Of a DNA stretch of 64,000 bases, positions 967-44,771 are shown one piece after another. How positions within the stretch are numbered: the stretch's first letter is position 1; each line of letters opens with the position of its first letter. The notes under the pieces were generated by a model. The model saw only the letters and a list, made by a program, of their open reading frames with translations. It was not told where the DNA came from and searched no databases. The DNA is from Candidatus Kapaibacterium sp. (lineage in GTDB: Bacteria > Bacteroidota > Ignavibacteria > Kapaibacteriales > UBA2268). A program made the translations under genes and the position numbers. Where the stretch lies: the NCBI GenBank assembly GCA_035445085.1, contig DAOMQA010000004.1, positions 86,788 to 150,787 of the forward strand, written 5' to 3'.

Positions 967-2226
967 TTATTTATTTATTGATTTTTCTAACCATACTTTA
1001 GATAGCTCTAAAATTGTCTCAACAGATACTTGCAAGAAGTCAATAGAAACCCATTCAGTTTTGCTATGAAAATTCTGACCACCTGTATATATGTTTGGTG
1101 TAGGCAATCCCATAGCCGTAAGGCGTGAACCATCAGTTCCTCCACGTATTGGACTCCAATATGGATTCGCTCCTACCCTTTCGCATGCTTCCCATAAATA
1201 ATCTAAGCCATGCGGTTGACTTTCTAAATCATCTAACATATTTCTATAATATTCTACAATTTCCATTTCTATACGAGTTTTTGGATGATTAGCTTGCACT
1301 TTATCTACAATCCCTTGCATTATACTTTTTTGTGTATCTAACCCTTCAGTTTTAAAATCTCTAAATAAAATTTGTAATTCTGATTTATCAATTGTACCTG
1401 TAACTTTGTGAGGATGTATATAAGGTTGATAGCCATCAGTAGTTTCAGGGGCCATATCACGAGGCATAAGTGCAATAATATCAGCTATAGCTCTAATTGA
1501 GTTTATCATTATATCTTTAGCATAGCCAGGGTGAATATCCCTACCATATGCTCTAATAATACATGCATTAGCACTAAAAGTTTCTTTATTGATTTCTCCA
1601 GGCATCTCGCCATCAATTGTATAAGCGTATTCGCAATTAAACTTTTCTACGTCAAAAAAGTTTGCACCGCGCCCTATTTCTTCGTCAGGAGTAAAACCAA
1701 TTCTTATATCACCATGTAAAATATCTTTATTTTTTATCAAATGACTAACTGCCGTCATAATTGCAGTTACACCAGATTTGTCATCAGAACCCAATAGAGT
1801 AGTTCCATCTGTAGTTATAATCGTATGGCCAATACATCTTGAAAGTGTCTTATTTTCACTCATTCTGATAACAACACTATTATCAGCAGGCAAAACTATA
1901 TCCCCACCTTGATAACTTTCAATTATTTGTGGTTGTACATTAGTACCACTCGAGTCTGGTGAAGTATCTACGTGCGCTATAAAGCCTATTTGGGGTACTT
2001 TCCCATAAGCTGGATGATCGTTGGGTATATTAGATGGTAGTGTAGCATATACATAACATTTATCGTTAATTTCTGCATCGACAATACCCATTTCTTTTAA
2101 TTCTTTAACTAACAAATTTGCTAAGTCAAATTGTTTTTGAGTAGAAGGAGTGCTTTGACTGTCAGGGTCTGACTGTGTATCAATCTTAACATATCTGACT
2201 AACCTATCAATAATTTCTGATTTCAT
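967..2226 (-). CDS. pepT: Peptidase T (tripeptide aminopeptidase, M20B family)
   Basis: 419-aa ORF. The N-terminus MKSEIIDRLVRYVKIDTQSDP, the HVDTSPD metal-binding motif, and GSDDKSG / TPDEEIG are characteristic of PepT and M20 peptidases. Confidence 0.88.
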   Translation of the reverse strand: MKSEIIDRLVRYVKIDTQSDPDSQSTPSTQKQFDLANLLVKELKEMGIVDAEINDKCYVYATLPSNIPNDHPAYGKVPQIGFIAHVDTSPDSSGTNVQPQIIESYQGGDIVLPADNSVVIRMSENKTLSRCIGHTIITTDGTTLLGSDDKSGVTAIMTAVSHLIKNKDILHGDIRIGFTPDEEIGRGANFFDVEKFNCEYAYTIDGEMPGEINKETFSANACIIRAYGRDIHPGYAKDIMINSIRAIADIIALMPRDMAPETTDGYQPYIHPHKVTGTIDKSELQILFRDFKTEGLDTQKSIMQGIVDKVQANHPKTRIEMEIVEYYRNMLDDLESQPHGLDYLWEACERVGANPYWSPIRGGTDGSRLTAMGLPTPNIYTGGQNFHSKTEWVSIDFLQVSVETILELSKVWLEKSINK

Positions 2227-2370
2227 ATTATTCCAAAAATTTGAAAAACATTAAACTCTAAGTTAATTAAAAGTTTTTAGATTAACAAAAAATATTACTC
2301 AATTGTAGTATTTACCGCAAATATTCTAATTTTATATTATTTTTGAATATAGTAACTATATGGTATTAAA

Positions 2371-3276
2371 TTGGAATCTTGGAAAGCCGAATCAGCTTTA
2401 TTTGTAGTAACAATAATTTGGGGCGCTACATTTCTTTTAACAAAAATTGGATTAGATGGAACTACTCCATCAATTTTTCTATTATTAAGATTATCATTAG
2501 CATTACTCATCAGCTTAATATTTTTTGGTAAGTACTTATTACGCTTAAACAAGACAATACTTGCTCAAGGGACGGTCTTAGGCTTGTTGTTTGGTGTGGG
2601 CTTTTTATTGCAAACGTATGGATTAAAATTCACGTCGGTATCAAAAACAGCTTTTATCACTGGTATTACGGTCGTAATAACTCCTTTTGTATATTTTTTA
2701 GTCAAAAAGAAAGCAATAGGAAGATGGGCTAAAGTTGGTGTAATTATAGCATCAATTGGTTTATATATCTTCACTAAACCAGATTTCGATAATTTGAACA
2801 TAGGAGATATTTTAACTTTACTTTCAACAATTATGTGGGCTTTCTATATTACCCTGATGGACACTTTTACAAAGGGGAAAAGCGGAATGGCTTTAACTTC
2901 CAACTTAGTAATATTACAATTTTTTATTTCTACATTATTATTTATTATATCGTTCTTTTTATTTGATTTTAATAACTATAAGCTCGTGATTAGTAATTCT
3001 TTATTAATTGCAGTCGCTTTTAATGGGATTTTGGCATCGTTTGCTGTTTCGTTTATACATACTGCCTTTCAGAGATACACAACGCCAGTAAAGGCAGCGC
3101 TAATCTTTTCGTTAGAACCATTATTTGCTGGGACATTTGCTATTATCTTTATAAACGAAATTTTATCAACAAGAGAGTATATTGGTGGTGGCATACTATT
3201 TATAGGTGTAATGATTTCTGAATTAGGTGTATTTTTAGAACCATTACTAAAAAAGATGAAGATACTAAATTCTTAA
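2371..3276 (+). CDS. EamA/DMT family permease (two EamA repeats, about 10 TM helices)
   Basis: 301-aa polytopic membrane protein with duplicated EamA-like halves (TIIWGATFLLTK... / TLLSTIMWAFYITLM...). It uses a TTG start because an in-frame stop lies at 2353. Confidence 0.65.
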   Translation: MESWKAESALFVVTIIWGATFLLTKIGLDGTTPSIFLLLRLSLALLISLIFFGKYLLRLNKTILAQGTVLGLLFGVGFLLQTYGLKFTSVSKTAFITGITVVITPFVYFLVKKKAIGRWAKVGVIIASIGLYIFTKPDFDNLNIGDILTLLSTIMWAFYITLMDTFTKGKSGMALTSNLVILQFFISTLLFIISFFLFDFNNYKLVISNSLLIAVAFNGILASFAVSFIHTAFQRYTTPVKAALIFSLEPLFAGTFAIIFINEILSTREYIGGGILFIGVMISELGVFLEPLLKKMKILNS

Positions 3277-5097
3277 AAATTTTTGATAAAATTGCTCACT
3301 ATTTAGTTTTGTATAAATTCTCGCTCCGTTTGGTGCAATTAATTTATGTTCACATTTCTTTAAATTTATTATGAGTGCCTTCATCTCTTCAATACTTAGT
3401 ACTTGCCCGACCTTGATAGCTAAGGTATTAGAAATTTCTTTATATATATTATCTACAATATCTAAATTAATAATATTAGGTAATTGAATTAACTGGATAA
3501 CTAAATCATTCAAAACTTCACTTTCTTTGCCTTCAGATATTAGTGATGGGATTTCATAAAAGCAAAGTTTACTATCTATTTTAAAATAAAAGCCAGCTTT
3601 ATTCAATAATTCTAAATTTTCCTTAAAAAAAGGCTTATCTTCAATGGATATATCAATATTGATTGGAAATAATAATTTATTGGTCTCAAACTTGATACTG
3701 TTAGACTTTAATGAATCATAAATTATTCTCTTATGCGTAGAATTTTGCTCATAAATTTCTAATTCATTATTAAATTCATTTATAATATATCTATTTAATA
3801 ACTGATATACCTTTCCAATTGGATTATCTATAATAACTTCTTGCTTGTTTGAGAAAATCAAATCAAAAGCAGAATTTAGTTGATTATTTTGATAAAGTAA
3901 TCTTGATTTTTCATCTTCTTGGTAATTATCAATTTTTTGATAACTAGTAGAATTATAATTTTTCTTTAAATTATCATAAGCTCTATTAGGCGTTGTATCT
4001 AAAATTTCTCCTGTAACCTTATTCACTTCAATAAATTCATTATCGAGCTGTATATTGATAAATGGAGACGTTATATTTATTTCATTTAAGTCCGGAATAA
4101 AATGTTTATTGAATAAAGCAGAACTAACAACATCTTTTAAAGTATTATATATAAACCTCTCTTCTTCAAATTTTACTTCATTCTTTTGAGGGTGTATATT
4201 AATATCTATTTTTTTGTAATCTACAGTTAAATTAATAATGAAAAATGGTTTCTGATTCCTATCTAATATCTTTTCATATACAGAGTTAATTGAGTGAGCT
4301 AAAGTTGGTGAAAATATAGCTCTTCGATTTAAAAAAAAATATTGTCCACTCCTATTTTGTTTTGCAAGCTCAGGTCCACCAATATAACCATTTATTTCAA
4401 GTCGTTCATCTTTATAGCTTATAGGAATTAATTTATTGCTAATTTGTGAGCCTAAGATTTCATTTATCCTATTAAATAAATCTGTTGCTTTTACATCAAA
4501 AATCAGAACATTATCATCATAAAAAGTAAATCTAATTTCTGGATAACTTAAAGCAAATTTTATCATTGTATCAGAGATATACTTAAACTCCGTCATATCT
4601 GATTTGAGAAATTTGCGTCTGGCTGGAACATTATAAAATAAATTTCTTATAAATATTTGCGTTCCCTTATCTGCATTAAAGGGATTAATAAGTTCGTCTT
4701 TCAATGGTTCGGAAATTAATTGCCAACCGAACTCAGAGCCTGATTGTTTAGTTCTAATTTCAACATTTGCAACAGAACAAACAGACGCTAAGGCTTCTCC
4801 CCTAAATCCAAAAGTTTTAATTTGCTCTAAGTCTTCAGAAGTAAATACTTTGCTTGTTGCATGCCTTCTAATAGATAACTTCAAATCTTCTTTATTCATA
4901 CCTTGTCCATTATCTACGATATGAATAAGTTTTTTACCAGATTGCTTTACTATTACAACTATAGAATCAGCACCCGCATCTATAGAATTTTCTACTAATT
5001 CCTTAACAACAGATTCGGGTCTTTGTACAACCTCCCCTGCTGCAATTTGATTAGCAATAAATTCTGGCAGTACTCTAATTTTATTTTCTATCATCAA
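3265..5097 (-). CDS. mutL: DNA mismatch repair protein MutL
   Basis: N-terminal GHKL ATPase motifs (IAAGEVVQRPESVVKELVENSIDAGA, DNGQGM, FGFRGEAL). 610 aa, with a C-terminal dimerisation region. Confidence 0.92.
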   Translation of the reverse strand: MMIENKIRVLPEFIANQIAAGEVVQRPESVVKELVENSIDAGADSIVVIVKQSGKKLIHIVDNGQGMNKEDLKLSIRRHATSKVFTSEDLEQIKTFGFRGEALASVCSVANVEIRTKQSGSEFGWQLISEPLKDELINPFNADKGTQIFIRNLFYNVPARRKFLKSDMTEFKYISDTMIKFALSYPEIRFTFYDDNVLIFDVKATDLFNRINEILGSQISNKLIPISYKDERLEINGYIGGPELAKQNRSGQYFFLNRRAIFSPTLAHSINSVYEKILDRNQKPFFIINLTVDYKKIDINIHPQKNEVKFEEERFIYNTLKDVVSSALFNKHFIPDLNEINITSPFINIQLDNEFIEVNKVTGEILDTTPNRAYDNLKKNYNSTSYQKIDNYQEDEKSRLLYQNNQLNSAFDLIFSNKQEVIIDNPIGKVYQLLNRYIINEFNNELEIYEQNSTHKRIIYDSLKSNSIKFETNKLLFPINIDISIEDKPFFKENLELLNKAGFYFKIDSKLCFYEIPSLISEGKESEVLNDLVIQLIQLPNIINLDIVDNIYKEISNTLAIKVGQVLSIEEMKALIINLKKCEHKLIAPNGARIYTKLNSEQFYQKFLRI

Positions 5098-5180
5098 AAA
5101 ATACTTTTATAAAACACAAATATTTCAGATTTAAAATTAAGTTAAATAATTGACTTAGTAAAGAAATAATATCAATAAAA

Positions 5181-5205
5181 ATAAAAAAAGCCGATTTTCA
5201 TCGGC
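5181..5205 (-). terminator. Rho-independent terminator downstream of tRNA-Phe
   Basis: On the minus strand, a GCCGA-TGAAAA-TCGGC hairpin is followed by a T7 tract (plus-strand A-run 5183..5189), immediately 3' of the tRNA. Confidence 0.55.
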
Positions 5206-5210
5206 TTCTG

Positions 5211-5283
5211 TGGTTGGAGAGGGAATTGAACCCCCGACACAAGGATTTTCAGTCCTTTGCTCTACCAACTGAGCTACCCAACC
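5211..5283 (-). tRNA. tRNA-Phe (anticodon GAA)
   Basis: The reverse complement gives GGTTGGGTAGCTCAGTTGGTAGAGCAAAGGACTGAAAATCCTTGTGTCGGGGGTTCAATTCCCTCTCCAACCA. It has a 73-nt cloverleaf with a 7-bp acceptor stem, GCTC/GAGC D-stem, anticodon loop CTGAAAA, TTCAATT T-loop and discriminator A. CCA is not encoded. Confidence 0.92.
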
Positions 5284-5294
5284 GATAGAGATTA

Positions 5295-5326
5295 CAAAAG
5301 TAGGCAATAATCACATTACTACCAAA
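5295..5326 (-). promoter_or_regulatory. Candidate FCB/Bacteroidota-type promoter (TTTG-N20-TAcTTTTG) for tRNA-Phe
   Basis: On the minus strand: aaaTTTGgtagtaatgtgattattgccTACTTTTGtaatctctatc followed by the tRNA 5' end. This matches the -33 TTTG / -7 TAnnTTTG pattern. Confidence 0.3.
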
Positions 5327-5334
5327 TTTATTTT

Positions 5335-7773
5335 TTAAAAATCATCATTTTGTTGATTATTTTCGTCAGGCGATCTTCTCTCTTTTTGCTTAATGCCTTG
5401 ATTTATCTTATATTGAATACCTAAAGAAATAAATTGAGTCATTCTTTTCATATCAAAATTATAAGTAAAACCCGGTCCAGAAGATACTTGATAGAACTTT
5501 TGAGTATCAAAAATATCACTTGCTCTCAATGACAAAGATAAATCTTCTAAAATGTCATATCTTAGTCCAGCATCTACTGAGTAACTTTCTGACCTTGAGC
5601 CTTGGGCCGTTACTGTAGGTGCAGTATAATATCCAGAAACCTGAAGATTAAATTGTTTACTTAAAAGCATATTAAACGATAGTCTTGATGACCAAGTATA
5701 GTCTTGTCTTGATTCTCTGCTCGCATCTATACCTTCAATTTTATAATTATAATACGATATATCACCGTTAAAACGCATCCATTTAAATATAGGACCGTTT
5801 AAATTCAATTCTATACCATAAGATTGGCTTTTAGCCATATTTTCCCAAGTAGATAGTATTACAGAATCAGAAATCATCTTTTGGTATCTTTCCATTACAT
5901 TATCTGTAAATCTATAAAATAACCCTGGATTTATTGCAATACCTCCAATATTATGAATAGTCCCTAATTCAAATAAATTTGAATATTCTGGCTTCAAATT
6001 GGGGTTACCAGACCTAATAGTGTAAATATCAGTATAATCCGTCCATGGGTTAAGTGACCAGCCACGAGGTCGCGTGATTCTCTGACTATAGTTTGCTTGA
6101 ACTTGGAGAGCGGGGCTAAACTTATAGCTAATATTAGCACTTGGAAATAAGTTAAAGTAAGTTTGACTATTTACCATACCTTTATTTGTTAAATCGCCAA
6201 TAATATTTGAATTTTCGGCTCTCAAACCAGCTTGTAGAAACAACGCATTAAAATCAGCTGACAAAATGAAATATCCCGCCATTATATTCTCATTATATTC
6301 ATAATAATTTTTCCGTGCTGTGTCTGACTGCCAATTACCACTAATTTGATTATTATAATCAAATTTAGTATCCCTAACTACTGATGAAGCTCTAATACCT
6401 GATTCAATTTTAAAATTTTCATTAAACTTATTACTATAATCTATTTGATATACTATAGATTTATCTTTTTCAATACTAATTGATTTTTCTAATGCATTAT
6501 TTAATGGATCGTAGCTTAAATATTGATCGTAATCAGTAAATTCGTCGTCATTTGAAGTAGAATAAAACAAATCACTTGTTAAATAATGCTCTTTATCAAA
6601 ATTGAGCCTATAGTTAGCAGAAAAATCAAAATTAGGGCTATGGCTATCCTCATAAGAAGATCGCCTTACTGTATCTATGTTTGGTGAAACCACATAGCTT
6701 TGGTTAGTTAAAGTATAGCCTCTCACATCAGCAAATCGAGGTCTGTACGAACCGCTTATTATTAGGCTTTGATTTTTATCTAGATTCCACTCAAAACCTG
6801 CTTTTACATTATGCATAAGCATTGCCCTATTTCTATCAGAAGTTTGAAACAATAATGAAGTGTCATTAACGGCGGGTAGTTGCGTAACTCTATTAGAAGT
6901 TCCACCCATTCCCCAAATAAACCTATTGAATGAATAAGAAGCGAAAAGATTTATCCCATTTACTTTATAATTTAAATTTAATGAAGATGAATATCTATCT
7001 TGTGTTCCAATATTAATATTAACCAAGCCATTAAGTCCAGAGTCTCTTTCTTCTTTTAAAACAATATTCAAGATACCTGTTGCCCCTTCCGCTTCATACT
7101 TTGCAGATGGATTAGTAATAATTTCTATATGGTCTATAATATCGGCTGGCAATTGTTCTAATGCAGACGAACCACCCCCTAAAAATGTAGTTGGTTTACC
7201 ATTGATAAGAATATTTACATTCCCTGAACCTCTTAGTGCAACATTGCCATCAATATCTACATTTACAGATGGGGCATTCTTAAGAACGTCTAAAGCATTC
7301 CCACCTTTTGAAGCAATGTCTTGGTCTACATTTATTACTCTTTTGCCAGATTGAAATTGAATGACATCTTTATCTGCTGTTATAGTAATTTCATCTGTCA
7401 ATTGTGATGTTTGATTTAATTCGATTGTCCCAAAATTATATGTAGGCTTAGACGAAGAAATAGTGAATGATTCGATGAATAGTTGTTGATAACCAACATA
7501 ATTAATTCTTAACAAATATTTACCACTATGAATTTTTTCTATCAGTAAATTCCCATGCTCATCAGTATACGCTCCCCCAGCAATCGTGGAATCTTTTTGT
7601 CTTAGCAAAGTTGCACTGGCTCTTGTTAAACCCTGCTTTGTATCGCCATCTATAATTCTTCCTTTGATTTCGCCACTTTTAAAATCTTCATTTCTATTAG
7701 TTTGTGAGTATAAAACTGTTGTTAGACATATAAATAGCACATAACTTGCTATCCAAAATTTTGTAAATCTCAT
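5335..7773 (-). CDS. TonB-dependent receptor-like outer-membrane beta-barrel protein with an N-terminal carboxypeptidase-regulatory-like domain
   Basis: 812 aa. Signal peptide, then a CarbopepD_reg-like segment (GEIKGRIIDGDTKQGL...GKYLLRINYVGYQQ), a plug-like region and a long beta-strand-rich barrel ending in a C-terminal aromatic residue (…NDDF). Confidence 0.75.
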   Translation of the reverse strand: MRFTKFWIASYVLFICLTTVLYSQTNRNEDFKSGEIKGRIIDGDTKQGLTRASATLLRQKDSTIAGGAYTDEHGNLLIEKIHSGKYLLRINYVGYQQLFIESFTISSSKPTYNFGTIELNQTSQLTDEITITADKDVIQFQSGKRVINVDQDIASKGGNALDVLKNAPSVNVDIDGNVALRGSGNVNILINGKPTTFLGGGSSALEQLPADIIDHIEIITNPSAKYEAEGATGILNIVLKEERDSGLNGLVNINIGTQDRYSSSLNLNYKVNGINLFASYSFNRFIWGMGGTSNRVTQLPAVNDTSLLFQTSDRNRAMLMHNVKAGFEWNLDKNQSLIISGSYRPRFADVRGYTLTNQSYVVSPNIDTVRRSSYEDSHSPNFDFSANYRLNFDKEHYLTSDLFYSTSNDDEFTDYDQYLSYDPLNNALEKSISIEKDKSIVYQIDYSNKFNENFKIESGIRASSVVRDTKFDYNNQISGNWQSDTARKNYYEYNENIMAGYFILSADFNALFLQAGLRAENSNIIGDLTNKGMVNSQTYFNLFPSANISYKFSPALQVQANYSQRITRPRGWSLNPWTDYTDIYTIRSGNPNLKPEYSNLFELGTIHNIGGIAINPGLFYRFTDNVMERYQKMISDSVILSTWENMAKSQSYGIELNLNGPIFKWMRFNGDISYYNYKIEGIDASRESRQDYTWSSRLSFNMLLSKQFNLQVSGYYTAPTVTAQGSRSESYSVDAGLRYDILEDLSLSLRASDIFDTQKFYQVSSGPGFTYNFDMKRMTQFISLGIQYKINQGIKQKERRSPDENNQQNDDF

Positions 7774-8036: not shown

Positions 8037-9020
8037 GTGAATTTAAGTAAACAGCAATTTCAACAATTAAAAAAAATTTGTATCATTAGAACTGATAAAC
8101 TTGGTGATATGGTTCTAACATTACCAATGTTTCGCATCATCAAATATATCAACCCACAAGTACAGACAATATTAATATGCTCTATTTATGTAAGTCCATT
8201 AGTAGAAGGTATTGAGTTTGTTGATAAAATATATTATATAGAAGAGACTACAATTAAAGAAATCAACAAAATTGAAAATATTGATTTAATTTTTTTCCCC
8301 AGAGCTGAATTCAGTGAGATTTGGCAGTCTTATATTTCTGGGATTAAATATCGAGTTGGTACAGCATATAGATTATATAGCTTTTTATATACTATTAAAA
8401 TAAAGGATCATAGAAAAGTATCAAAATTTCACGAAGCAGAATATAATTTAAGAATGATTAGCCAAATTACGAATGAAACATATCATGTAAATCTTGTAGC
8501 TCCTCAAATTAATATAAAAGATACTATTTACCCAAGTTTTAATGATAATAAGCAATTAATAATCCTTCACCCAGGCAGCAACGGCTCTGCAAAAGATATA
8601 ACATCAGAAACGTGGCGTATCGTAATAAATAAGCTATTATCTATGAATTTTCGCCTAATAATTACTGGATTAGAAAAAGAAAAAGAGTTGTGCGATAGTT
8701 TAGCTAATCAATCCGACGAAATTATTAACTTTTGCGGTAAATTATCTTTAAAAGAGACAATAGCTCTAATAAGTCGATGTAATTGCTTAATTGCAAATTC
8801 TACGGGTATCATACATATTGCTGCTTCCTTAAATATAGCAACAATTGGTTTTTACCCTAATACTCCCCACATAGGTGCTGCCAGATGGGGTCCATATAAT
8901 AAAAAGACACTCATAGTTAGTCCCAAGCATGGAGACGATATGTCTTTAATTGATAGTGAGATGGTAGAAAGTGCTATCAATCAAATTACTAAAATTATGA
9001 ATGAGACGGATATTTGTTAA
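8037..9020 (+). CDS. Glycosyltransferase family 9 (LPS heptosyltransferase-like)
   Basis: GT9 hallmarks IIRTDKLGDMVLTLPM, ILHPGSNGSAKD, NSTGIIHIAASL. GTG start. Confidence 0.72.
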   Translation: MNLSKQQFQQLKKICIIRTDKLGDMVLTLPMFRIIKYINPQVQTILICSIYVSPLVEGIEFVDKIYYIEETTIKEINKIENIDLIFFPRAEFSEIWQSYISGIKYRVGTAYRLYSFLYTIKIKDHRKVSKFHEAEYNLRMISQITNETYHVNLVAPQINIKDTIYPSFNDNKQLIILHPGSNGSAKDITSETWRIVINKLLSMNFRLIITGLEKEKELCDSLANQSDEIINFCGKLSLKETIALISRCNCLIANSTGIIHIAASLNIATIGFYPNTPHIGAARWGPYNKKTLIVSPKHGDDMSLIDSEMVESAINQITKIMNETDIC

Positions 9021-9021
9021 T

Positions 9022-11226
9022 ATGGAACTACAATATATAAAAGGAGTTGGACCAAGTCGCGCAAAAATATTAGAAAGCGCTGGATTAGCAACAATAGAAG
9101 ATTTAATAAACTATTATCCCAAATCATATATTGATAGAGAAGCAGTAAAAAGTATTAGGGAATTAAAGCACTTTATATTAAATAGAGATAATATAAAAAT
9201 TAACCTTAATGGAATAAATGATATTAAAATTTCAAGCGAAGTGTCAATAATTGGAAAAATTACTTATAAGAAAATACTGAACTTTTCTAAAAAAGAAATG
9301 TTAAAACTAACAATTAGCGATGGAAGCGATAGTTGTTCTATAATTTTTTGGAATAGGGCACAGTTTTTTGGAAAAGTTTATAGTATTGGCGAATTACTTT
9401 TAATAAGTGGCGTTCCCGAGTTAGATGATTATAAGCAATTAAGTTTTACGCACCCCGATATTGATAAAATAGACAAAGAAGACGAAGATAATTTTCATTT
9501 AGGGAAGATTTTACCCAAATATAGTTTAAATGATAAGTTAGTCAAAGGAAATATTACACAGAAAGTACTTAGATTAATAATTAAAAATACTTTTGATTTA
9601 TATAAAGTTAAAATCGTTGAAACTCTACCGCCACATATCCTGTTTAAATATAATTTAGACAGTTTAGAAAAGAGTATTATGAATATACATTTCCCAGAGG
9701 ATAAGCAAGAGTTAGAGAGTGCCATTTATAGGCTGAAATTTGATGAGATTCTATATTATCTGCTAAATGTAAAATTACTTAAATCTGGCTATCAACACAA
9801 ATATAATGGGATAAAGATAGATTCTAAAAGCATTAAAGCAAGAACTTTATATGATAGTTTGCCATTTGAATTAACCAAAGACCAAAAAAAAGTATTGAAT
9901 GATATCGCCAAAGATATGAAATCAGACGAGCCAATGAACCGCCTAATACAGGGCGATGTTGGCTCTGGTAAGACAATAGTATCAATTTTGGCAATGCTTA
10001 TGGTAGTTGATGCAGGTTATCAATGTTTAATAATGGCGCCAACTGAAATATTAGCTGAGCAACATTATAGGAGCTTAAGTAATTATTTAAGTACCTTCGG
10101 CATAAAAATATACTTATTAACGGGAAGTATTAGATCTAAATTAAAAAAAGAAATACTTGCTAATATCAAAGAGGAATCACCTGTTATAATTATAGGCACA
10201 CATGCCCTTTTTCAAAGTAACATCGAATACAAAGACTTAGCGCTAATTGTCATTGATGAACAACATAGATTTGGAGTAGAACAAAGAGCAGACTTAATAG
10301 ATAGAGCTAAACTATCATTAGACAGGACAGATATAAGCCCACATATTTTAGTCTTAAGTGCTACTCCAATTCCTAGGACCTTAAGCATGACAATTTACGG
10401 GGATTTAGATATTTCCATTATTAAATCTATGCCTAAAAATAGAAAGGCAATTATTAGCAAAGTTGTTTTTGATAGCGATAGGCTCAAGGTTTATAATTTT
10501 ATAAAAGAGAATATTAGGAAAGGTTACCAAGCTTTTATAGTATATCCCTTAGTTGAGAAATCAGAAAAATTAGAACTAAAGGCTGCCACAGAGCATTACG
10601 AAGCTCTTTGTAATGAAATATTCCCAGAACTTAAAATTGGTTTAATTCATGGGCAAATGCCTTGGAATGAGAAAGATGAGGTAATGCAGAAATTTTTAAA
10701 TAAAGAATTTCATATTTTAGTAGCTACTACCGTCATTGAGGTTGGTATAGATATTCCTAATGCTAATATTATGCTAATTGAAGATGCACATAGATTTGGA
10801 TTGTCCCAATTACACCAATTACGCGGAAGAGTTGGGCGGTCAGACCTACAATCATATTGTTTTTTAATGACAAAAGAACATTATAAATTTCATATCAACA
10901 AGAAAAAAGAGGATTCAGCCTTTGAAAGGAACTTAGCTATCATTAGATTGAATGCAATGGAAAAAACTAATGATGGCTTTGAATTAGCAGAAATTGATTT
11001 GAAATTAAGAGGACCCGGAGACATGTTAGGCACTAAACAAAGTGGCTTGCCTGATTTCAATTTTTTAGATTTAGTAAATGATGTAGAACTCATTGAAAAT
11101 GTAAAAACTATAGTAGAAGAAATAATTATAGGCGATCCTGACTTTTCTAAATCGGAAAATAAAATATTAAAAAATGAATTACTATTCAGATATGGGAAAA
11201 ATAAATCTTTCTATAATATAGCTTAA
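9022..11226 (+). CDS. recG: ATP-dependent DNA helicase RecG
   Basis: Wedge/OB N-domain followed by SF2 helicase motifs (GDVGSGKTIVSILAM, DEQHRFGV, QLRGRVGR). The start is placed at MELQYIKG, directly after the upstream stop. The track ORF begins 21 nt earlier in the same frame. Confidence 0.9.
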   Translation: MELQYIKGVGPSRAKILESAGLATIEDLINYYPKSYIDREAVKSIRELKHFILNRDNIKINLNGINDIKISSEVSIIGKITYKKILNFSKKEMLKLTISDGSDSCSIIFWNRAQFFGKVYSIGELLLISGVPELDDYKQLSFTHPDIDKIDKEDEDNFHLGKILPKYSLNDKLVKGNITQKVLRLIIKNTFDLYKVKIVETLPPHILFKYNLDSLEKSIMNIHFPEDKQELESAIYRLKFDEILYYLLNVKLLKSGYQHKYNGIKIDSKSIKARTLYDSLPFELTKDQKKVLNDIAKDMKSDEPMNRLIQGDVGSGKTIVSILAMLMVVDAGYQCLIMAPTEILAEQHYRSLSNYLSTFGIKIYLLTGSIRSKLKKEILANIKEESPVIIIGTHALFQSNIEYKDLALIVIDEQHRFGVEQRADLIDRAKLSLDRTDISPHILVLSATPIPRTLSMTIYGDLDISIIKSMPKNRKAIISKVVFDSDRLKVYNFIKENIRKGYQAFIVYPLVEKSEKLELKAATEHYEALCNEIFPELKIGLIHGQMPWNEKDEVMQKFLNKEFHILVATTVIEVGIDIPNANIMLIEDAHRFGLSQLHQLRGRVGRSDLQSYCFLMTKEHYKFHINKKKEDSAFERNLAIIRLNAMEKTNDGFELAEIDLKLRGPGDMLGTKQSGLPDFNFLDLVNDVELIENVKTIVEEIIIGDPDFSKSENKILKNELLFRYGKNKSFYNIA

Positions 11227-11239
11227 TTGAGGAGGAATA

Positions 11240-14200
11240 ATGCCAATTATAGTTCATAATACAGAATTTGATATTAATAAAAACCAGCTTAATTTAAATG
11301 AAATTATTAGTAACTATATTGTTAAAGATAAAATAGATGAATTATTTATAGTATTACCTACTGCTAAATGGCAAAGATATTTGAATAATCATATTGTAAG
11401 GCAGTATTTTGAGCACCATAAAAAGCCTACACCATCTTTAAACATATATAATTTAAGTAAATTTACTGAATTTATATATTCAAAATTATTCAAGCAAAAT
11501 GAACATGTATTAATTTCCGATGCCTTTAGGCTTTCAAAGTTTGAGGAAGCATGCAACAAAGCAGACTTACATTTCTTTCGTAACTTTGGACAGAAAATGA
11601 ATTTAAATTTAGTAAAACGCTTATCAGATACAATCTATGGACTAAAGGAAGATGGTATCAGGGTAAATGATTTAATGAAGGATATTGAAGTAATTGCTAC
11701 TTCTATCGAGGGCGGTATTGACTATTCTTATGATTTAGGTCGTCTAAAAGATATTTATCAGATTTACAAAGAATTTGAATATTTATTAAAAAGTAAGTTA
11801 CTTGATTTGCCAGCTTTAATAGATTTAGTAAGCCAAAAGCTAAGTGATGTAAATTTACTAAACCCTAATAGTATTAAGGAATTAGTTTTTGACAATCGTG
11901 ATATAGTTATTTTTGTTTACGGCTTCACTGATTTTAAAAAGCCCGAGATTGATTTTTTATCAAAGTTTGGCTACTCAAATATTCCTTTAGCAATTCATAT
12001 TGACTTTTCTTCAAAGAATGGTCCTTTGTATAGCAATATGAGGGAAATAGTAAACTGGCTTGAACAAACGCAAAGATTTAAGTCTTTTGAAGATGACATG
12101 AATGACGAGCTTAATGGCAAGCAAGATCCAACACAGCTTAATATTAACACTTTTCTGCGTAAGCATTTGTTTATTGAAAAGAGTATTATGAACTACTCAC
12201 AACTAAACGACAAGCTAACTATTTATGAGCTTGACGATATAAATAATGAAGTGATATTTATAGCTAAATTAGTAAAAAAATTGATTATCGAAGATAAATA
12301 CAAAGCAAATGAGATATGCGTTGTAGCGCGTCAGCCATCAGTATATACCGATTTAATAAGAAATGAATTTAATAAAGAGAGAATTCCTCATAACATCTCT
12401 GATAGGTTCGAACTTAAAAGTTCACCCATAATCACTTTGATATTCAATGTATTAGAATTAATAACAAATGATTATCACCGAGACACTTATATCAAAATAC
12501 TAAAAAATCCACTTGTAAATTTTGAAAAGAATATAAAAGAAGATGTACACATTGATATCGATAATTTAATCAGGGTATTTTCTGCTTTTAAATTATTAAG
12601 GTACCCTTGGGACAATAAGTTTGACAGTAGAATAAACTATCTGAATCACAGAATTAATCAAAAGAATGAGGATGCTGCCGAAGAATTTGAAATCAATTTA
12701 TTAAAACATGAATTAGCTAATGTAATTAAAGCAAAAAATGATTTTTTAATTATTAACTCAAAATTACCACAATTAAATGGTAAAACTGATCTTACTTCAG
12801 ATGAGTTTACTAACTTAGTCAAAGATAATATTATAGATAGGTTAGGAGTCATTGAAAAGATTAAAGACTTTTATAAGAGGACATTTGAAATACATACTAA
12901 AGGGCTATATACATCACATATTAATTTTACAATTGATGAAATAGAAAAGTTATCTAAATCTATCAATAAATTTATAAAACTACTTAATGAGATAAATTAC
13001 ATCAATAATATGCTAAATCCCAATATCAAATTTAGTATTTATGAGCTCATTGAAAGGTTAAAGATTGCTGTTAGCGGTGAAAAATATAATATTCATGAAA
13101 AAGTAAACTACGGAGTAGATATAACCTCTATTGAACAAACAAGAGGTATTCCATATAAAGTCTCTATCTTATGCGGAGCTTTTGAAGGCAATCTACCTAT
13201 TGCCTTCAAAACAGATTCATTTATTGGCAAAGACATACCCAATTCTAAAGAACGACACTATAATTCAGAACAAGTACAATTTTATCAATTTCTGACTAAT
13301 AATTCTGCTCAACAAGGTTATAAGCTATTTATTACTTATCCTAGTAAAATGGATAATAATGACTTGGTGCCATCGCACTTTTTATTATCATTATATAAAA
13401 TTACTGGCATAGACAAGCATTCACTCTATAAAATATCCTACAACAACGTTGAGCATATGAAATGGTTTAGTTATTTAACTAATATCAGCGAAATTGAAGA
13501 GGAACGATTTAAAACGCTACACGATAAGCATGATACGTATTTTAATTACTTAGCTAACAGGAAATCTACACTACCTCTAGTTCGTATCCTCTCCGATAAC
13601 CCTCAAGTAGATTATAATTTTAATATAGATAGTAATAGTATATTATCAATATCAACTCTTGAAAACTACAATGAATGCCCTTATAAATACTATGTATCAA
13701 AAGTTTTAAAAATTCAAGAAGAAAAAGACACTAACAAGGAATTGTCTTCTTTAGAAAAAGGAGATTTAATTCATTATGTTCTATTTAAATTTTATAATAG
13801 CTTAAAAGAGGATATAGCATCTGATAATTCTAATACTACATTTAATACAATCAAGCTATGCACACAAAAACAAGATGAAATCTATACTTTATTTATTCAT
13901 ATAGCGCATGCAATTTTCAAAGAATTTAAAGACTCCGATATATTCTTTGATTTATTCTATAATGAAATGTTAGGATTTGATTTTAGAGAAGAGTTAGGCG
14001 AATACCCAGGTTTAAGTGATAATAAGGGCAAGCTATTACAATGGTTAAAGAAGGAGTTAAAAAGACAATCTGACGATAAATTTTATAAACCAGCTTTATT
14101 TGAATATGCTTTTGGCTTTAAAAAAGAAACAGCAGTACTTATAGATAATAAATTTAGATTACGTGGTAAGATTGATAGGATTGAATTAAAAGAAGGAGAT

Positions 14201-14641
14201 AACGTAATTAAATTTAATGTTGCAGACTATAAAATGGTCTTAGGCAAAAAACATTCATATTCTTCAATTATCAAAGGCGAGTCATTACAAATGCCTTTAT
14301 ATATGTATGCTTTCAAAAAGATATTAGAGGGACAAGAGGCAATAAATAAATTACAAGTTGATTACCATGGGGCAGTATACTATCCTACTACTAAGTTTTA
14401 TGAAAATAAAAATAGCGTTTTTTATAAATTTGCACTATATGATGATGAATTAATAGAGCAAGAAGTCAGCCCAAGGTCAAAAAAGAATATTAAAAACATT
14501 AATGAAGTAATTGATAATTCAATCCAGCACGCAAGCCACATCGTTGATAATATCAATAGTGGAATTTTTGATATAAAGCCAGGGCGGCACTGCCAATTTT
14601 GTACCTTTGCTGCTATTTGTAGAAAAAACACTTTAATTTAA
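11240..14641 (+). CDS. AddB-like PD-(D/E)XK (RecB-family) nuclease with a Cas4/AddB-type Fe-S cluster and a degenerate N-terminal helicase-like region
   Basis: 1133 aa. The C-terminal nuclease module has Cys in ECPYKYYV, RecB motifs GKIDRIE / ADYKMV / QMPLY, and a terminal C-x2-C-x5-C (HCQFCTFAAIC). The N-terminal roughly 800 aa has no intact Walker A (LPTAKWQ sits where GSGKT is expected). Strong SD GGAGG lies 6 nt before the ATG, 13 nt after the recG stop. Confidence 0.6.
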   Translation: MPIIVHNTEFDINKNQLNLNEIISNYIVKDKIDELFIVLPTAKWQRYLNNHIVRQYFEHHKKPTPSLNIYNLSKFTEFIYSKLFKQNEHVLISDAFRLSKFEEACNKADLHFFRNFGQKMNLNLVKRLSDTIYGLKEDGIRVNDLMKDIEVIATSIEGGIDYSYDLGRLKDIYQIYKEFEYLLKSKLLDLPALIDLVSQKLSDVNLLNPNSIKELVFDNRDIVIFVYGFTDFKKPEIDFLSKFGYSNIPLAIHIDFSSKNGPLYSNMREIVNWLEQTQRFKSFEDDMNDELNGKQDPTQLNINTFLRKHLFIEKSIMNYSQLNDKLTIYELDDINNEVIFIAKLVKKLIIEDKYKANEICVVARQPSVYTDLIRNEFNKERIPHNISDRFELKSSPIITLIFNVLELITNDYHRDTYIKILKNPLVNFEKNIKEDVHIDIDNLIRVFSAFKLLRYPWDNKFDSRINYLNHRINQKNEDAAEEFEINLLKHELANVIKAKNDFLIINSKLPQLNGKTDLTSDEFTNLVKDNIIDRLGVIEKIKDFYKRTFEIHTKGLYTSHINFTIDEIEKLSKSINKFIKLLNEINYINNMLNPNIKFSIYELIERLKIAVSGEKYNIHEKVNYGVDITSIEQTRGIPYKVSILCGAFEGNLPIAFKTDSFIGKDIPNSKERHYNSEQVQFYQFLTNNSAQQGYKLFITYPSKMDNNDLVPSHFLLSLYKITGIDKHSLYKISYNNVEHMKWFSYLTNISEIEEERFKTLHDKHDTYFNYLANRKSTLPLVRILSDNPQVDYNFNIDSNSILSISTLENYNECPYKYYVSKVLKIQEEKDTNKELSSLEKGDLIHYVLFKFYNSLKEDIASDNSNTTFNTIKLCTQKQDEIYTLFIHIAHAIFKEFKDSDIFFDLFYNEMLGFDFREELGEYPGLSDNKGKLLQWLKKELKRQSDDKFYKPALFEYAFGFKKETAVLIDNKFRLRGKIDRIELKEGDNVIKFNVADYKMVLGKKHSYSSIIKGESLQMPLYMYAFKKILEGQEAINKLQVDYHGAVYYPTTKFYENKNSVFYKFALYDDELIEQEVSPRSKKNIKNINEVIDNSIQHASHIVDNINSGIFDIKPGRHCQFCTFAAICRKNTLI

Positions 14642-14642
14642 C

Positions 14643-15755
14643 TTATTTAAAAATTTGATCTTTCCACTTAATATTTGATTTAAATACAAGGGGCGGTATA
14701 AGTAATTCCATAATAAGAAAGAAAGCTACTGCTGGCAACGTCCATTTTACTATATTGCTTTTACCAATACCAATGAGCGCTTGGCTGATAAGGATAGAAT
14801 CGCTTACCAATCTAACTGTTAATAATATCAAAAATAATAAATATTGTCCACTAAATAATGTCGCAAGCAAAGCACCCCATACTGCTACAGAACTTAATAC
14901 AAAGAAAAATGCAACCCATTTAAGATCTAAACCACCTCTACCCCATCTCCTTAATTGGGAAACTAAGTCTGGAAAGGATTTACAAGGATTAGTTTCAACT
15001 ACAGCATCAGGATTGGTTATATAGGTAGCAATCCCACCCATTTTCATTATTGTCTTCAATAATGCATAATCTTCAGTTATTGAAAATGGTATTTTGCTAT
15101 AACCCCCTATTTCTTTATATATATTACGTCTAATTGCAAGGTTAGTTCCAAAACAACCTAAAGGATAATTAAATGCCGGACCTGCGCTTGCCATTTTGTG
15201 AAGATATACCCATTGAACGGCTTGTATTTTATCAAAAATTCTATCTCCCTTAAGCGTCGTGTAAGCGGATACAATATTAACTTTAGGGTTTGAAAAATAC
15301 TTTACAATTGTAGAAATCCACTTCGGATTTACTTCACAATCTGCATCAGTCATTAGTATCAATTCACCTTTAGATATATTAATTCCATAGTCTAATGCTC
15401 CTGGTTTACCTCTCAAATTATTATTCTTATTTGCTTCGCTAATATTTATAATTTTTAAATTAGGAATACTTAAAGCTAATTTATCTAATATTTTCAACGT
15501 GTTATCTTTTGAACGATCATTTACTGCAATAATCTCATAATTATCAATAGGATAATTTGATTTGCTAATACAAGTTATTGCATTCTCTATATTATTTTCT
15601 TCGTTACGGGCAGGAACAATTATTGATACAAATGGCTGATAATCTAATTGTAAATCTTCAACAGACTTTCTTTTGGTTTTTCTGGCGCCAATAAAAATCA
15701 GCAAACTCCTTATTATAAAGAGTAAAATTGCAATATATGCTATTATTAATATCAT
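14643..15755 (-). CDS. Glycosyltransferase family 2 membrane protein
   Basis: N-terminal TM helix, then the GT-A motifs VSIIVPARNEE, MTDADC and QxxRW-like (QLRRWGRGG), followed by C-terminal TM helices. Confidence 0.75.
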   Translation of the reverse strand: MILIIAYIAILLFIIRSLLIFIGARKTKRKSVEDLQLDYQPFVSIIVPARNEENNIENAITCISKSNYPIDNYEIIAVNDRSKDNTLKILDKLALSIPNLKIINISEANKNNNLRGKPGALDYGINISKGELILMTDADCEVNPKWISTIVKYFSNPKVNIVSAYTTLKGDRIFDKIQAVQWVYLHKMASAGPAFNYPLGCFGTNLAIRRNIYKEIGGYSKIPFSITEDYALLKTIMKMGGIATYITNPDAVVETNPCKSFPDLVSQLRRWGRGGLDLKWVAFFFVLSSVAVWGALLATLFSGQYLLFLILLTVRLVSDSILISQALIGIGKSNIVKWTLPAVAFFLIMELLIPPLVFKSNIKWKDQIFK

Positions 15756-23485: not shown

Positions 23486-25564
23486 ATGAAAAAATATTTA
23501 ATCCTCTGTTTTGTTATTGTACAAATCAATGCCTTTGGATTCGATTTGAATATAAGTAATCAATCAAAATCCAAAATCGTGTGTAATGGGGATAGTGCGA
23601 ATTTGTGGGTTGATGTTGATGGAAGTAATCTTAAATTCATTTGGACCTATAATAACCAGGTAATTGAGAACGAACATTATAGAATACTTACTATAAAGAA
23701 TTTTGATTATACCAAGTCAGGTATTTATAATTGTTTTGTAAGCGACTCTATTAGCAAGAAAATAGTAAAATCTGAAGATATAGTATTATATAACGCCACA
23801 GAAACAATTTTCATTAAGCAAGCAAAAAATGTTTTATTCAATATTAATACCAATGCTATATTTGAAACAAAAATTCATACAAATCTAAATGCCGAGAACA
23901 ACGTAAAATTACAGTGGTATTTTTTGCCGGAAAGTGATTTGTGGGATATAAGCAAATTAGTTAAAATTGAAGATGACAATAAATTTTCAGGAACTACAAC
24001 AGAAATTTTATCAATCAATACTATGAAATATGCAGATAAAGGCGCATATTATTGTATTGCACAGGGAGAGTGTGGTAATGATACAGCAATTGCAATATTA
24101 AGCGATAATTTATACTTTAAGCTAACTAATATCTCTAAGGATTATGAGGATTGCGAGGGGCACGACGTTACATTTGAAGTTAAAATCGAAAATAACTCTG
24201 GTACTACATTGGATTTACAGTGGTTCAACCCTGTGCTTAAAGAGATTAATGAATCTGATAAATATATTGGGACCAAAACTAATAAACTCACTATAAAAAA
24301 TGTCAATAGTAAAGATAATAAAGCCTACTATCTAAAGGTTACAAGTAAAGAACTAAATATGTTTAAAAGGAGCGACCACTTTTATCTACAAGCACAAACG
24401 AAGCCTGAAATCTTAGTACAACCAGCTGATTATACAATTTTAGATAGAGAGTTACATCCCACATACCATGGGCAAACCTATGTAGGAGTAACAGTAAAAA
24501 ATAGTGGCATTTGTAAATTCAATTGGTATAGAAACGATACCTTAGTACGTTCAACGAACAATTATTATTCATCTAATTACTTTTTAGGCAGCAATGGCGT
24601 AATTATACCAGCCAAGATGTCTGATGTTGGCGAATACCAGTGCGAGATAATAAACGAATGTGGCACTACTTGGTCTAAGAAAGCTACTGTAGTTTGGGGG
24701 TACAAAGATATATTTTCGTGCGAGGGTTCAGATGTTGAGTTAATCTCTGATAGCATAAGCAAAAATACCAATAAATATAGTTACGTTTGGTATTTCAAGG
24801 ATAAAGAGATAAAAGAAAGCAATAAATATAAAAATGTAACTACTAATAAACTCACTATCAACAAATTAACAAGCAAGGATCAGGGTTCATATTACGTATA
24901 TTATAAAACCTTATTAAGCGGAGTATCCAAATTTTTAGGTAAAGTATATTTGCAAGTAAATATAGTGCCTAAAATAACAAGGCAATTACCAGATACTATG
25001 TACCTTGATGGGAAATTTATAAAAAAAGACGCAATCGTCGTTAATGTAGTTGGCGATATCTTTAGCTACCAAATCTTTAATAAAGATAATGAGCCAATGG
25101 GAAACTCCATTTCTAAAAAGATTACTAATATTTATGATGAGTATCAAATTATATATTTAGGTGGACCAGATTTGACGCTTGCTGACGGAACTTACTATTT
25201 CAAATTCTGGAATACTTGTGGTATAGTAAAGTCTAATTACTTTACTATTAACAGTATCCAGAAACCTGTTAGAATAATTATAGATAGCCTACTAATCTCT
25301 TCAATAAAAGATAAAGAGAGTAGTCATAATTTTTCACTTTATCCTAACCCAAGCCAGTATATTTTAAATATTAAAACAGATCAAGCAGAGTTTCATAAAT
25401 CAGAGCTAAAAGTATTTAATGCATTAGGGCAAGATTTAAGCAATTATATAATTGCATCAACGATGAAAGAAAATGAAATTCAAATTGATATATCTGCACT
25501 AAAAGAAGGTATATATTATATTAGGTATTTAAACTATACAGGGAAGTTTGTTAGAATTAATTAG
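23486..25564 (+). CDS. Secreted multi-Ig-like-domain protein with a C-terminal T9SS (Por) sorting domain
   Basis: Signal peptide. There are at least 5 repeats carrying Ig-like Y-x-C cores (YNCFVSDS, YYCIAQGECGNDT, YQCEIINECGTTWS, GSYYVYY...). The last roughly 80 aa (LYPNPSQYILNI...VFNALGQDL...GIYYIRY...) match the type-A T9SS C-terminal domain. AGGAGT SD. Confidence 0.7.
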   Translation: MKKYLILCFVIVQINAFGFDLNISNQSKSKIVCNGDSANLWVDVDGSNLKFIWTYNNQVIENEHYRILTIKNFDYTKSGIYNCFVSDSISKKIVKSEDIVLYNATETIFIKQAKNVLFNINTNAIFETKIHTNLNAENNVKLQWYFLPESDLWDISKLVKIEDDNKFSGTTTEILSINTMKYADKGAYYCIAQGECGNDTAIAILSDNLYFKLTNISKDYEDCEGHDVTFEVKIENNSGTTLDLQWFNPVLKEINESDKYIGTKTNKLTIKNVNSKDNKAYYLKVTSKELNMFKRSDHFYLQAQTKPEILVQPADYTILDRELHPTYHGQTYVGVTVKNSGICKFNWYRNDTLVRSTNNYYSSNYFLGSNGVIIPAKMSDVGEYQCEIINECGTTWSKKATVVWGYKDIFSCEGSDVELISDSISKNTNKYSYVWYFKDKEIKESNKYKNVTTNKLTINKLTSKDQGSYYVYYKTLLSGVSKFLGKVYLQVNIVPKITRQLPDTMYLDGKFIKKDAIVVNVVGDIFSYQIFNKDNEPMGNSISKKITNIYDEYQIIYLGGPDLTLADGTYYFKFWNTCGIVKSNYFTINSIQKPVRIIIDSLLISSIKDKESSHNFSLYPNPSQYILNIKTDQAEFHKSELKVFNALGQDLSNYIIASTMKENEIQIDISALKEGIYYIRYLNYTGKFVRIN

Positions 25565-44770: not shown

Positions 44771-44771
44771 A

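Follow-up and report, generated by a model that had tools for sequence, protein, structure and literature searches.

Described AddB proteins and their partners

In AddAB enzymes, as seen in structures 3U4Q and 4CEH, the AddB subunit is fed by a motor that moves 3'-5' on single-stranded DNA; RecG, in contrast, is a translocase of branched double-stranded DNA. An N-terminal Walker A motif is not carried by every type of AddB, and in Proteobacteria the AddB types without it function with AddA. The E. coli RecC protein functions only in complex with a UvrD-family motor, and RecC has neither catalytic nuclease residues nor an Fe-S cluster. H. pylori AddAB is a working enzyme without gene linkage; its addA (hp1553) and addB (hp0275), unlinked and yet forming that enzyme, were reportedly described by Amundsen and colleagues in 2008. 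Rocha et al. (2005, PMC1193525) count colocalised add genes in 13 of 13 genomes of Proteobacteria and name Clostridium tetani as the exception in the firmicute count, and an unlinked pair of add genes thus appears to have precedent.

The canonical low-GC arrangement is represented in our comparison by an addB-addA operon (L090) in which addA, encoding a protein of 1315 aa with UvrD-helicase, UvrD_C, and PDDEXK_1 domains, overlaps the addB stop codon by 14 nt. Its AddB (1083 aa; ADDB_N and PDDEXK_1) is similar in length to the 1133-aa protein studied here. The window, by which we mean the whole 64-kb stretch of DNA that was analysed, derives from a Kapabacteria MAG; unlike the L090 operon and the B. 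subtilis genes, it holds an addB-type gene that does not adjoin addA. Our search of the literature found no paper connecting Kapabacteria with AddAB.

Organization of the GT9-recG-addB block

The first-pass annotation described a recG gene, an 1133-aa nuclease gene beginning 13 nt further on, and a convergent GT2 gene, and the coordinates of the open reading frames agree with this layout. The block, which is conserved, opens with a gene for an LPS-type GT9 (heptosyltransferase-like) glycosyltransferase at 8037..9020 on the plus strand (Pfam Glyco_transf_9, E 4.9e-20). The recG gene (9022..11226, plus strand, 734 aa) starts at an ATG at 9022, 1 nt past the GT9 stop; the mechanically called reading frame begins at an in-frame ATG at 9001, within the GT9 gene. 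Its TAA stop at 11224-11226 is followed by the spacer (11227..11239, plus strand), which carries AGGAGG at 11230-11235, 4 nt ahead of the ATG at 11240 that opens the addB-type gene (11240..14641, plus strand; HRP01703.1). Only 1 nt separates the end of this gene from the GT2 glycosyltransferase gene at 14643..15755 on the minus strand (Pfam Glycos_transf_2, E 5.9e-27), which ends the block and leaves no space there for addA.

The close spacing is ordinary for this DNA. Among the 33 same-strand neighbour pairs in the window, 17 have a gap of at most 15 nt, and the median, at 13 nt, equals the recG-addB gap. Since short gaps are usual here and the GT9-recG gap is itself 1 nt, a functional pair cannot be read from close spacing. 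The Shine-Dalgarno sequence, which had been singled out as a strong GGAGG, is present and uncommon for this genome, a GGAGG-type 5-mer lying upstream of only 5 of 47 window genes; however, it is not conserved at this junction in relatives, as seen in L001 and L008; L091 has AGGAG. A terminator scan found no terminator-like site between recG and addB, and a promoter scan performed no better than shuffled sequence (57 promoter-like sites versus 54). Translational coupling of recG to addB may occur, and the GT9, recG, and addB genes are probably co-transcribed.

The helicase encoded by recG is conventional. Its Pfam domains are RecG_wedge, DEAD, Helicase_C, and RecG_dom3_C, it exceeds the cut-offs of both NCBIfam equivalogs (NF008168, 819 bits against 718; TIGR00643, 710 bits against 659), and all expected motifs were found, including the Walker A GDVGSGKT, DEQH, SAT, and QLRGRVGR. 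Judged from its sequence, the recG product is a standard housekeeping, branch-migration RecG without an extra domain.

The 1133-aa protein is a divergent AddB

Pfam placed a UvrD_C domain at residues 312-659 (E 1.7e-12) and a PDDEXK_1 domain at residues 802-1128 (E 2.6e-29) of the 1133-aa protein. The protein also matched chain B of the B. subtilis AddB structure in a phmmer search of the PDB (3u44_B, E 9.7e-10). In the NCBIfam AddB equivalog test, which comprised TIGR02773, TIGR02786, and TIGR02774, the best match was to TIGR02773 (addB_Gpos) at E 3.4e-28, with 98 bits against a cut-off of 904; TIGR02786 gave 35 bits against a cut-off of 487. By these profile scores the protein is a divergent AddB subfamily that falls outside the curated NCBIfam equivalogs.

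Structure comparison covered the remainder of the chain. An AF2 model (pLDDT 81.9) was searched with Foldseek, and the best five matches were all B. subtilis AddB chains, with E values from 7e-33 to 1e-31 and TM scores of 0.67-0.69 over ~1150 residues; the top match was 4cej_B (E 7e-33, TM 0.69). Other classes scored lower, namely RecC (TM 0.44-0.50), AdnA (0.43-0.47), and AddA (0.32-0.35). On the strength of the predicted model, the protein is AddB-like along its full length. This bears out the earlier suggestion of an AddB-like protein for residues 1-800 as well, a region that contains the UvrD_C match. The window protein thus resembles B. subtilis AddB (3U44, 3U4Q, and 4CEH-4CEJ, chain B) in its full-length architecture and fold, in size (1133 aa versus 1166 aa), in its RecB-family nuclease motifs, and in the C...CxxCx5C pattern of Fe-S cysteines. 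It differs in sequence, with ~14% identity in the structural alignment, in scoring far under the TIGR02773 cut-off, and in having no N-terminal Walker A. H. pylori AddB is likewise divergent and encoded far from addA, but belongs to another phylum and is much shorter.

The NCBI record HRP01703.1 names the protein 'exodeoxyribonuclease V subunit gamma', which would make it a RecC that pairs with RecB and RecD encoded elsewhere. RecC is indeed the second-best structural class, and in E. coli RecC, as in the window protein, a nuclease-fold domain comes after a dead-helicase scaffold that lacks Walker A. However, AddB was far the better match (TM 0.69, E 7e-33 versus ~1e-16 for RecC), no NCBIfam recC match was obtained for the window protein, and a complete PD-(D/E)XK site is present along with the Fe-S cysteines. 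We consider the RecC assignment highly improbable; the RecC-type name of the record is wrong and the protein is AddB.

Two further identities were considered and rejected. An AdnAB-type enzyme, in which both subunits are active motors, does not fit a protein without Walker A and with the lower AdnA score. An anti-phage defence nuclease-helicase was set aside as the PADLOC hits were partial, weak, and at the superfamily level only (GajB of Gabija, 35 bits over 117 residues; Cas4, 27 bits).

A live nuclease site and a missing ATP site

The gene can be divided at the boundary between the two regions of the protein. Codons 1 to ~790 (11240..13609, plus strand) encode an inactive SF1-helicase-like region without Walker A, and codons 800-1133 (13637..14638, plus strand) encode a RecB-family PD-(D/E)XK nuclease domain together with four Fe-S cysteines. 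The PD-(D/E)XK/RecB nuclease motifs (E, GxxDR, D-x-K, and QxxxY) are all present. All 66 relatives retain E955, D979, D996, K998, and Q1017, and 65 of the 66 retain Y1021. The first-pass annotation had called the protein an Fe-S nuclease, and this is consistent with the cysteines C813, C1118, C1121, and C1127, each of which occurs in 64 of 66 relatives; the four are predicted 4Fe-4S ligands around the nuclease domain.

The N-terminal region gave the opposite picture for ATP binding. None of the 66 AddB family members carries GxxxxGK[ST] at the P-loop position, which instead holds 'xxNxxF', whereas the control AddB of the L090 operon has the Walker A GESHSGKS at residues 9-16. The sole match to the Walker A expression in the family, at residue 116 of L079, lies away from the P-loop position. 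The 'VPTGK' segment was considered as a degenerate Walker A and rejected, as its position in the model, on the second beta-strand and past helix 19-28, is that of the 'VPxQ' segment which canonical AddB conserves behind the P-loop helix ('LIVPEQS' in L090). Having no Walker A, the 1133-aa AddB is without a motor of its own.

An active site and Fe-S ligands that are strictly conserved, in a family of which no member retains the ATP site and at whose loci no linked partner gene was seen at any position examined, could be read as the mark of a protein that acts alone. Its AddB ancestry would then be only historical, and it would be a motor-less, structure-specific Fe-S nuclease like Cas4 or the Dna2 nuclease domain. 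Residues 1-700, however, are rich in invariant columns, and such strong conservation of the ~790-residue helicase-like scaffold makes little sense unless it guides a strand within a translocating complex. Moreover, the proteobacterial AddB types that lack Walker A do work with AddA. We therefore regard solitary action as very unlikely.

AddA is not linked to addB in Kapabacteria

The absence of any UvrD/Rep-like helicase from the window, as previously noted, was upheld. Pfam searches of all 16 open reading frames of at least 470 aa found no UvrD-type helicase, and tblastn of canonical AddA and UvrD against the window gave no match at E<=1e-3. Two Logan contigs with identical end-of-window proteins, which add ~2 kb and ~8 kb, also contained no UvrD-type helicase.

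We then extended the comparison to addB orthologues at 74 species-level Kapabacteria loci. AddA was found within 10 kb of addB at none of the 74. The single UvrD-like exception within this distance was a 760-aa UvrD/PcrA-like gene located 7 kb from addB in L046. No AddA was seen in all the Kapabacteria sequence searched, ~1.5 Mb in total, and the closest outgroup family (1050 aa, P0020-P0023) also lacks an adjacent AddA. The lack of an adjacent AddA partner, first remarked upon for the window, is therefore general across the class Kapabacteria rather than special to this locus. The expectation that addB sits next to addA fails for an entire class of Bacteroidota.

We favour the interpretation, with a probability of about 0.62, that the window encodes a canonical-type AddB of an AddAB-type end-processing enzyme, that addA lies unlinked elsewhere on the chromosome, and that there is no RecG-AddB machine. 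The 1133-aa protein would serve as the AddB subunit of an enzyme that processes double-strand-break ends. Its dead SF1-helicase-like scaffold would, as in AddAB, guide and scan the 3' strand, and its live RecB-family nuclease domain, pinned by the four-cysteine Fe-S cluster, would cut the 5' strand. Without an ATP-binding motif this AddB should be unable to move on DNA alone and would need a motor subunit, for which the likeliest candidate is a UvrD-family helicase-nuclease of the AddA type whose gene lies at another chromosomal site. Within the sub-clade of the window, addB has become the last gene of a compact, probably co-transcribed GT9-recG-addB block. We infer that an unlinked AddA most likely exists, this being more likely than a partnership between RecG and the nuclease. 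The outcome is then a correction of the NCBI name and a modest comparative finding.

Weighing against this explanation are the ~1.5 Mb without AddA, the unlinked outgroup, the L047 adjacency described below, and the NCBIfam AddB score of 98 bits against a cut-off of 904. If it is true that complete Kapabacteria genomes lack any AddA/RecB-type helicase-nuclease, an undescribed partner and break-processing mechanism would be implied.

Conservation of the recG-addB adjacency

Directly upstream of addB, recG was found only in one NJ clade, composed of the window, L012, L013, and P0003. The pair is present in four of four lineages of this clade at AddB identities of 43-57% and with gaps of 8-28 nt, and the recG-linked AddB proteins are 1129-1141 aa long with no added module. 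In L001-L003 and L091, recG is likewise preceded by GT9. The check suggested in the first-pass annotation, whether recG followed by the nuclease is a conserved pair in relatives, thus comes out positive within the immediate clade but not beyond it, as ~70 other Kapabacteria species carry an addB orthologue without recG upstream. The flanks of addB differ widely among the loci, upstream contexts numbering at least 22 and downstream contexts at least 26, and even in L001 and L008 the downstream gene is not the same as that of the window. Scans of metagenomes found no close relatives of the 1133-aa protein.

This distribution bears on the reading in which Kapabacteria are without AddA and AddB is paired with RecG, in the sub-clade of the window, or with UvrD/PcrA or another helicase, as an undescribed resection or fork-processing enzyme. 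The lack of AddA within 10 kb at all 74 loci, the likewise unlinked outgroup family, and the retention of recG-addB throughout one clade at short gaps are in its favour, as is a second recG adjacency in another clade. Against it stand the ~70 orthologues with no recG nearby and in many contexts, and a RecG that is ordinary, scores above the equivalog cut-offs, and has no added domain. The recG-linked AddB proteins have likewise gained no module, and the 150 best representatives out of 27,836 profile hits, which reach at most 1347 aa, include no AddB-helicase fusion. The tight spacing is usual in this genome and joins GT9 to recG too, and RecG as a motor type is mechanistically unlike the motor that feeds AddB. 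We judge such a pairing unlikely. The evolutionary form of this idea, that the class Kapabacteria, and possibly the 1050-aa AddB lineage too, lost AddA and kept a motor-less but catalytically intact AddB that works with RecG where the two genes share an operon, or with UvrD/PcrA in other lineages, seems to us improbable; were AddA loss the true history, it would point to an enzyme of a new type for end resection or fork processing.

A functional machine composed of RecG and the nuclease, as raised by the first-pass annotation, is not supported given the clade-restricted gene order and the equally tight GT9-recG junction. The recG-addB adjacency is a lineage-specific gene order of a compact genome and would mean no more than that two repair genes are expressed together; the tight spacing is a clade-specific accident. 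The second adjacency occurs in L047, a distant genome, where recG lies downstream of addB in convergent orientation. If this second adjacency is truly independent, pure chance is an unlikely source of it, with a probability of ~0.02 by our own estimate (~47 other contexts over ~3000 genes).

The Kapabacteria protein is a motor-less AddB

The gene behind recG (11240-14641) encodes a 1133-aa protein identical to HRP01703.1, which belongs to a ‘Candidatus Kapabacteria bacterium’ MAG. In this protein Pfam places a UvrD_C domain (residues 312-659) and a PDDEXK_1 domain (802-1128). The protein is AddB-like, as the first-pass annotation had proposed, and it is so along its entire length, beyond the nuclease domain. 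In a phmmer search of the PDB, B. subtilis AddB was the sole match (3u44_B, E 9.7e-10, residues 181-458). The top NCBIfam model was TIGR02773 addB_Gpos (E 3.4e-28), with a score of 98 bits that is far under the 904-bit equivalog cut-off; in the relatives P0012 and P0021 this model aligned across almost its full length. An AlphaFold2 model built with 19 homologues (mean pLDDT 81.9) was used as the Foldseek query against the PDB, and the top five matches were all B. subtilis AddB chains (E 7e-33 to 1e-31, TM 0.67-0.69), with RecC (TM 0.44-0.50), AdnA (0.43-0.47), and AddA (0.32-0.35) at lower ranks. The NCBI name of the protein, ‘exodeoxyribonuclease V subunit gamma’ (RecC), is unsupported, as AddB is a far better structural match than RecC.

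A pattern scan with the family alignment, covering one genome per GTDB species, yielded 74 loci, several of them on closed chromosomes of 2.2-5.5 Mb. The residues that the proposed Fe-S nuclease would need are kept across this family: E955, D979, D996, K998, and Q1017 are invariant in 66/66 full-length members, Y1021 is retained in 65, and C813, C1118, C1121, and C1127 are each present in 64. This conservation implies strong selection on both the nuclease residues and the Fe-S ligands. No Walker A motif occurs at the N-terminal P-loop position in any of the 66 full-length members; the canonical control, the AddB of the low-GC locus L090 that adjoins an AddA, carries GESHSGKS at residues 9-16. 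The 1133-aa protein is thus an AddB without a motor.

Informative record titles among the 74 loci are Kapabacteria/Kapaibacterium, ‘Chlorobiota’, ‘Ignavibacteria’, and Bacteroidota MAGs, while ~23 loci are titled ‘uncultured Hyphomicrobiales’ and other labels occur once or twice each. The ‘uncultured Hyphomicrobiales’, ‘Chloroflexota’, and ‘Desulfobulbaceae’ titles sit on Kapabacteria-type addB contigs (L013, L019-L022, L027, L029, L030, L046, L068, and others) and are probably placeholder or wrong MAG taxonomy.

No AddA gene adjoins the Kapabacteria addB

We searched for a UvrD-family partner at several scales. Within the window, Pfam found no UvrD-type helicase among the ORFs of at least 470 aa, and canonical AddA and UvrD queries gave no tblastn match, which bears out the earlier statement that the 64 kb lack such an enzyme. 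Logan contigs with identical end-of-window proteins added a few kb per side without a helicase. A motif scan, phmmer, and tblastn detected an AddA-like ORF within 10 kb at none of the 74 family loci; the lone UvrD-family find was in L046, where a 760-aa UvrD/PcrA-like gene lies 7 kb downstream. When 1.84 billion representatives were searched exhaustively with the family profile, 3244 matches passed E<=1e-30. The top 150 of them range from 493 to 1347 aa, so none of these contains a helicase fusion that would reveal the partner.

The closest outgroup family, with proteins of 1050 aa (P0020-P0023), also lacks an adjacent AddA, and the unlinked arrangement of addB may therefore extend past Kapabacteria. 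This 1050-aa lineage is found in ‘Bacteroidetes bacterium’ MAGs (L009, L086, L087), with a CYTH-domain gene upstream and obg downstream. The more distant AddB P0024, of locus L090, shows the textbook addB-addA overlap.

AddB has no motor of its own, and in the solved AddAB complexes AddA supplies the 3'-5' ssDNA motor on which it relies. Conservation is dense along the ~790-residue scaffold of the Kapabacteria protein, a pattern that fits a strand-guiding role within a translocating complex. The data are read most simply as a canonical AddAB with unlinked genes throughout the class, addA presumably being encoded elsewhere in the genome. H. pylori carries addA and addB at unlinked positions. 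Published counts appear to offer a further precedent: Rocha et al. 2005 (PMC1193525) found the add genes colocalised in 13/13 proteobacterial genomes and, among the firmicutes counted, named Clostridium tetani as the exception. Should closed Kapabacteria chromosomes prove to be without any AddA/RecB-type protein, the finding would be considerably more interesting.

The recG-addB junction and its conservation

The first-pass annotation raised a functional pairing of the nuclease with RecG, with an AddA encoded elsewhere as the alternative. Our ORF map agrees with that annotation. It has, in order, a GT9 glycosyltransferase gene (8037-9020), recG (9022-11226) with its ATG 1 nt past the GT9 stop, a 13-nt spacer containing AGGAGG at 11230-11235, the 1133-aa ORF, and a convergent GT2 glycosyltransferase gene (14643-15755). 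RecG has the full Pfam domain set, exceeds two equivalog cut-offs, and keeps every motor motif intact; judged by its sequence, it is ordinary and complete.

The recG-addB junction is not special. Among same-strand neighbours in the window, gaps are <=15 nt in 17/33 pairs (median 13 nt), and equally tight pairs without a functional link include GT9/recG (1 nt), FtsK/RecN-like (4-nt overlap), and the overlapping O-antigen-ligase-like gene and CysS. An AGGAG or GGAGG 5-mer lies within 20 nt upstream of just 5/47 called genes, so by the standard of this genome addB has an unusually strong Shine-Dalgarno sequence, but it is not conserved in relatives: GGAGG is absent from the junctions of L001 and L008, and L091 has AGGAG only. 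Co-transcription of recG and addB is likely because no terminator-like site lies between them in the window, and translational coupling is possible.

Conservation of the gene pair is partial. A same-strand recG directly upstream of addB is a feature that the window shares with three relatives: P0003 (L091; AddB identity 56-57%, gap 11 nt), P0004 (L001-L003 and L012; 53%, 8 nt), and P0005 (L008 and L013; 43%, 28 nt), the last with a contig-end 43-residue fragment that matches the C-terminus of RecG at 61% identity. These lineages form a single clade in a rough NJ tree, and a GT9 gene precedes recG wherever the contigs extend far enough. Some 70 other species lack an upstream recG, and in these none was found within 10 kb of addB, with the exception of L047. 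There (1648-7490) a 752-aa RecG with the full domain set is encoded tail-to-tail with addB, 8 nt downstream; here the two genes adjoin a second time, with recG reversed and in an NJ clade other than that of the window. This convergent arrangement hints weakly at some association of the two repair genes; by a rough estimate a second adjacency would arise by chance with a probability of ~0.02 if the events were independent, which the NJ tree is too poorly resolved to establish. Since the upstream linkage belongs to one clade and its row includes an unrelated GT9 gene, it does not point to a RecG-AddB machine, and the proposed functional pairing is not supported.

Other neighbors of addB and of the window

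What flanks addB varies widely: at least 22 different contexts were counted upstream and at least 26 downstream. The commonest neighbors are polyprenyl synthase (20 loci), DprA (14), CCA-adding enzyme (11), a LonC-like protease (7), and LigA (5). The commonest order in the class is dprA, polyprenyl synthase gene, addB (L029:7892-13531 and about 14-20 other loci), often with a convergent gene for the CCA-adding enzyme downstream. In at least seven Kapabacteria loci the LonC-like AAA protease gene (~840 aa; LonC_helical, AAA_32, Lon_C) is an immediate same-strand neighbor of addB, either just upstream and 4 nt away or in overlap with the 3' end of addB (for example, L079:13381-15897 and L004:7471-9996).

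The remaining window ORFs of at least 470 aa encode a TonB-dependent receptor, ClpB, FtsK, a RecN-like SMC protein, MutL, a PHO4 transporter, TPR proteins, CysS, and glycosyltransferases. ftsK (983 aa) and the RecN-like SMC_N gene (571 aa) form a tightly packed DNA-handling pair at 44760-49423. A 692-aa protein (23486-25564) consists of immunoglobulin-like repeats and ends in a Por_Secre_tail domain for T9SS sorting. The stretch 3265-5283 holds, both on the minus strand, mutL (610 aa) and, just upstream of it, tRNA-Phe (5210-5283); no other RNA gene was detected in the window.
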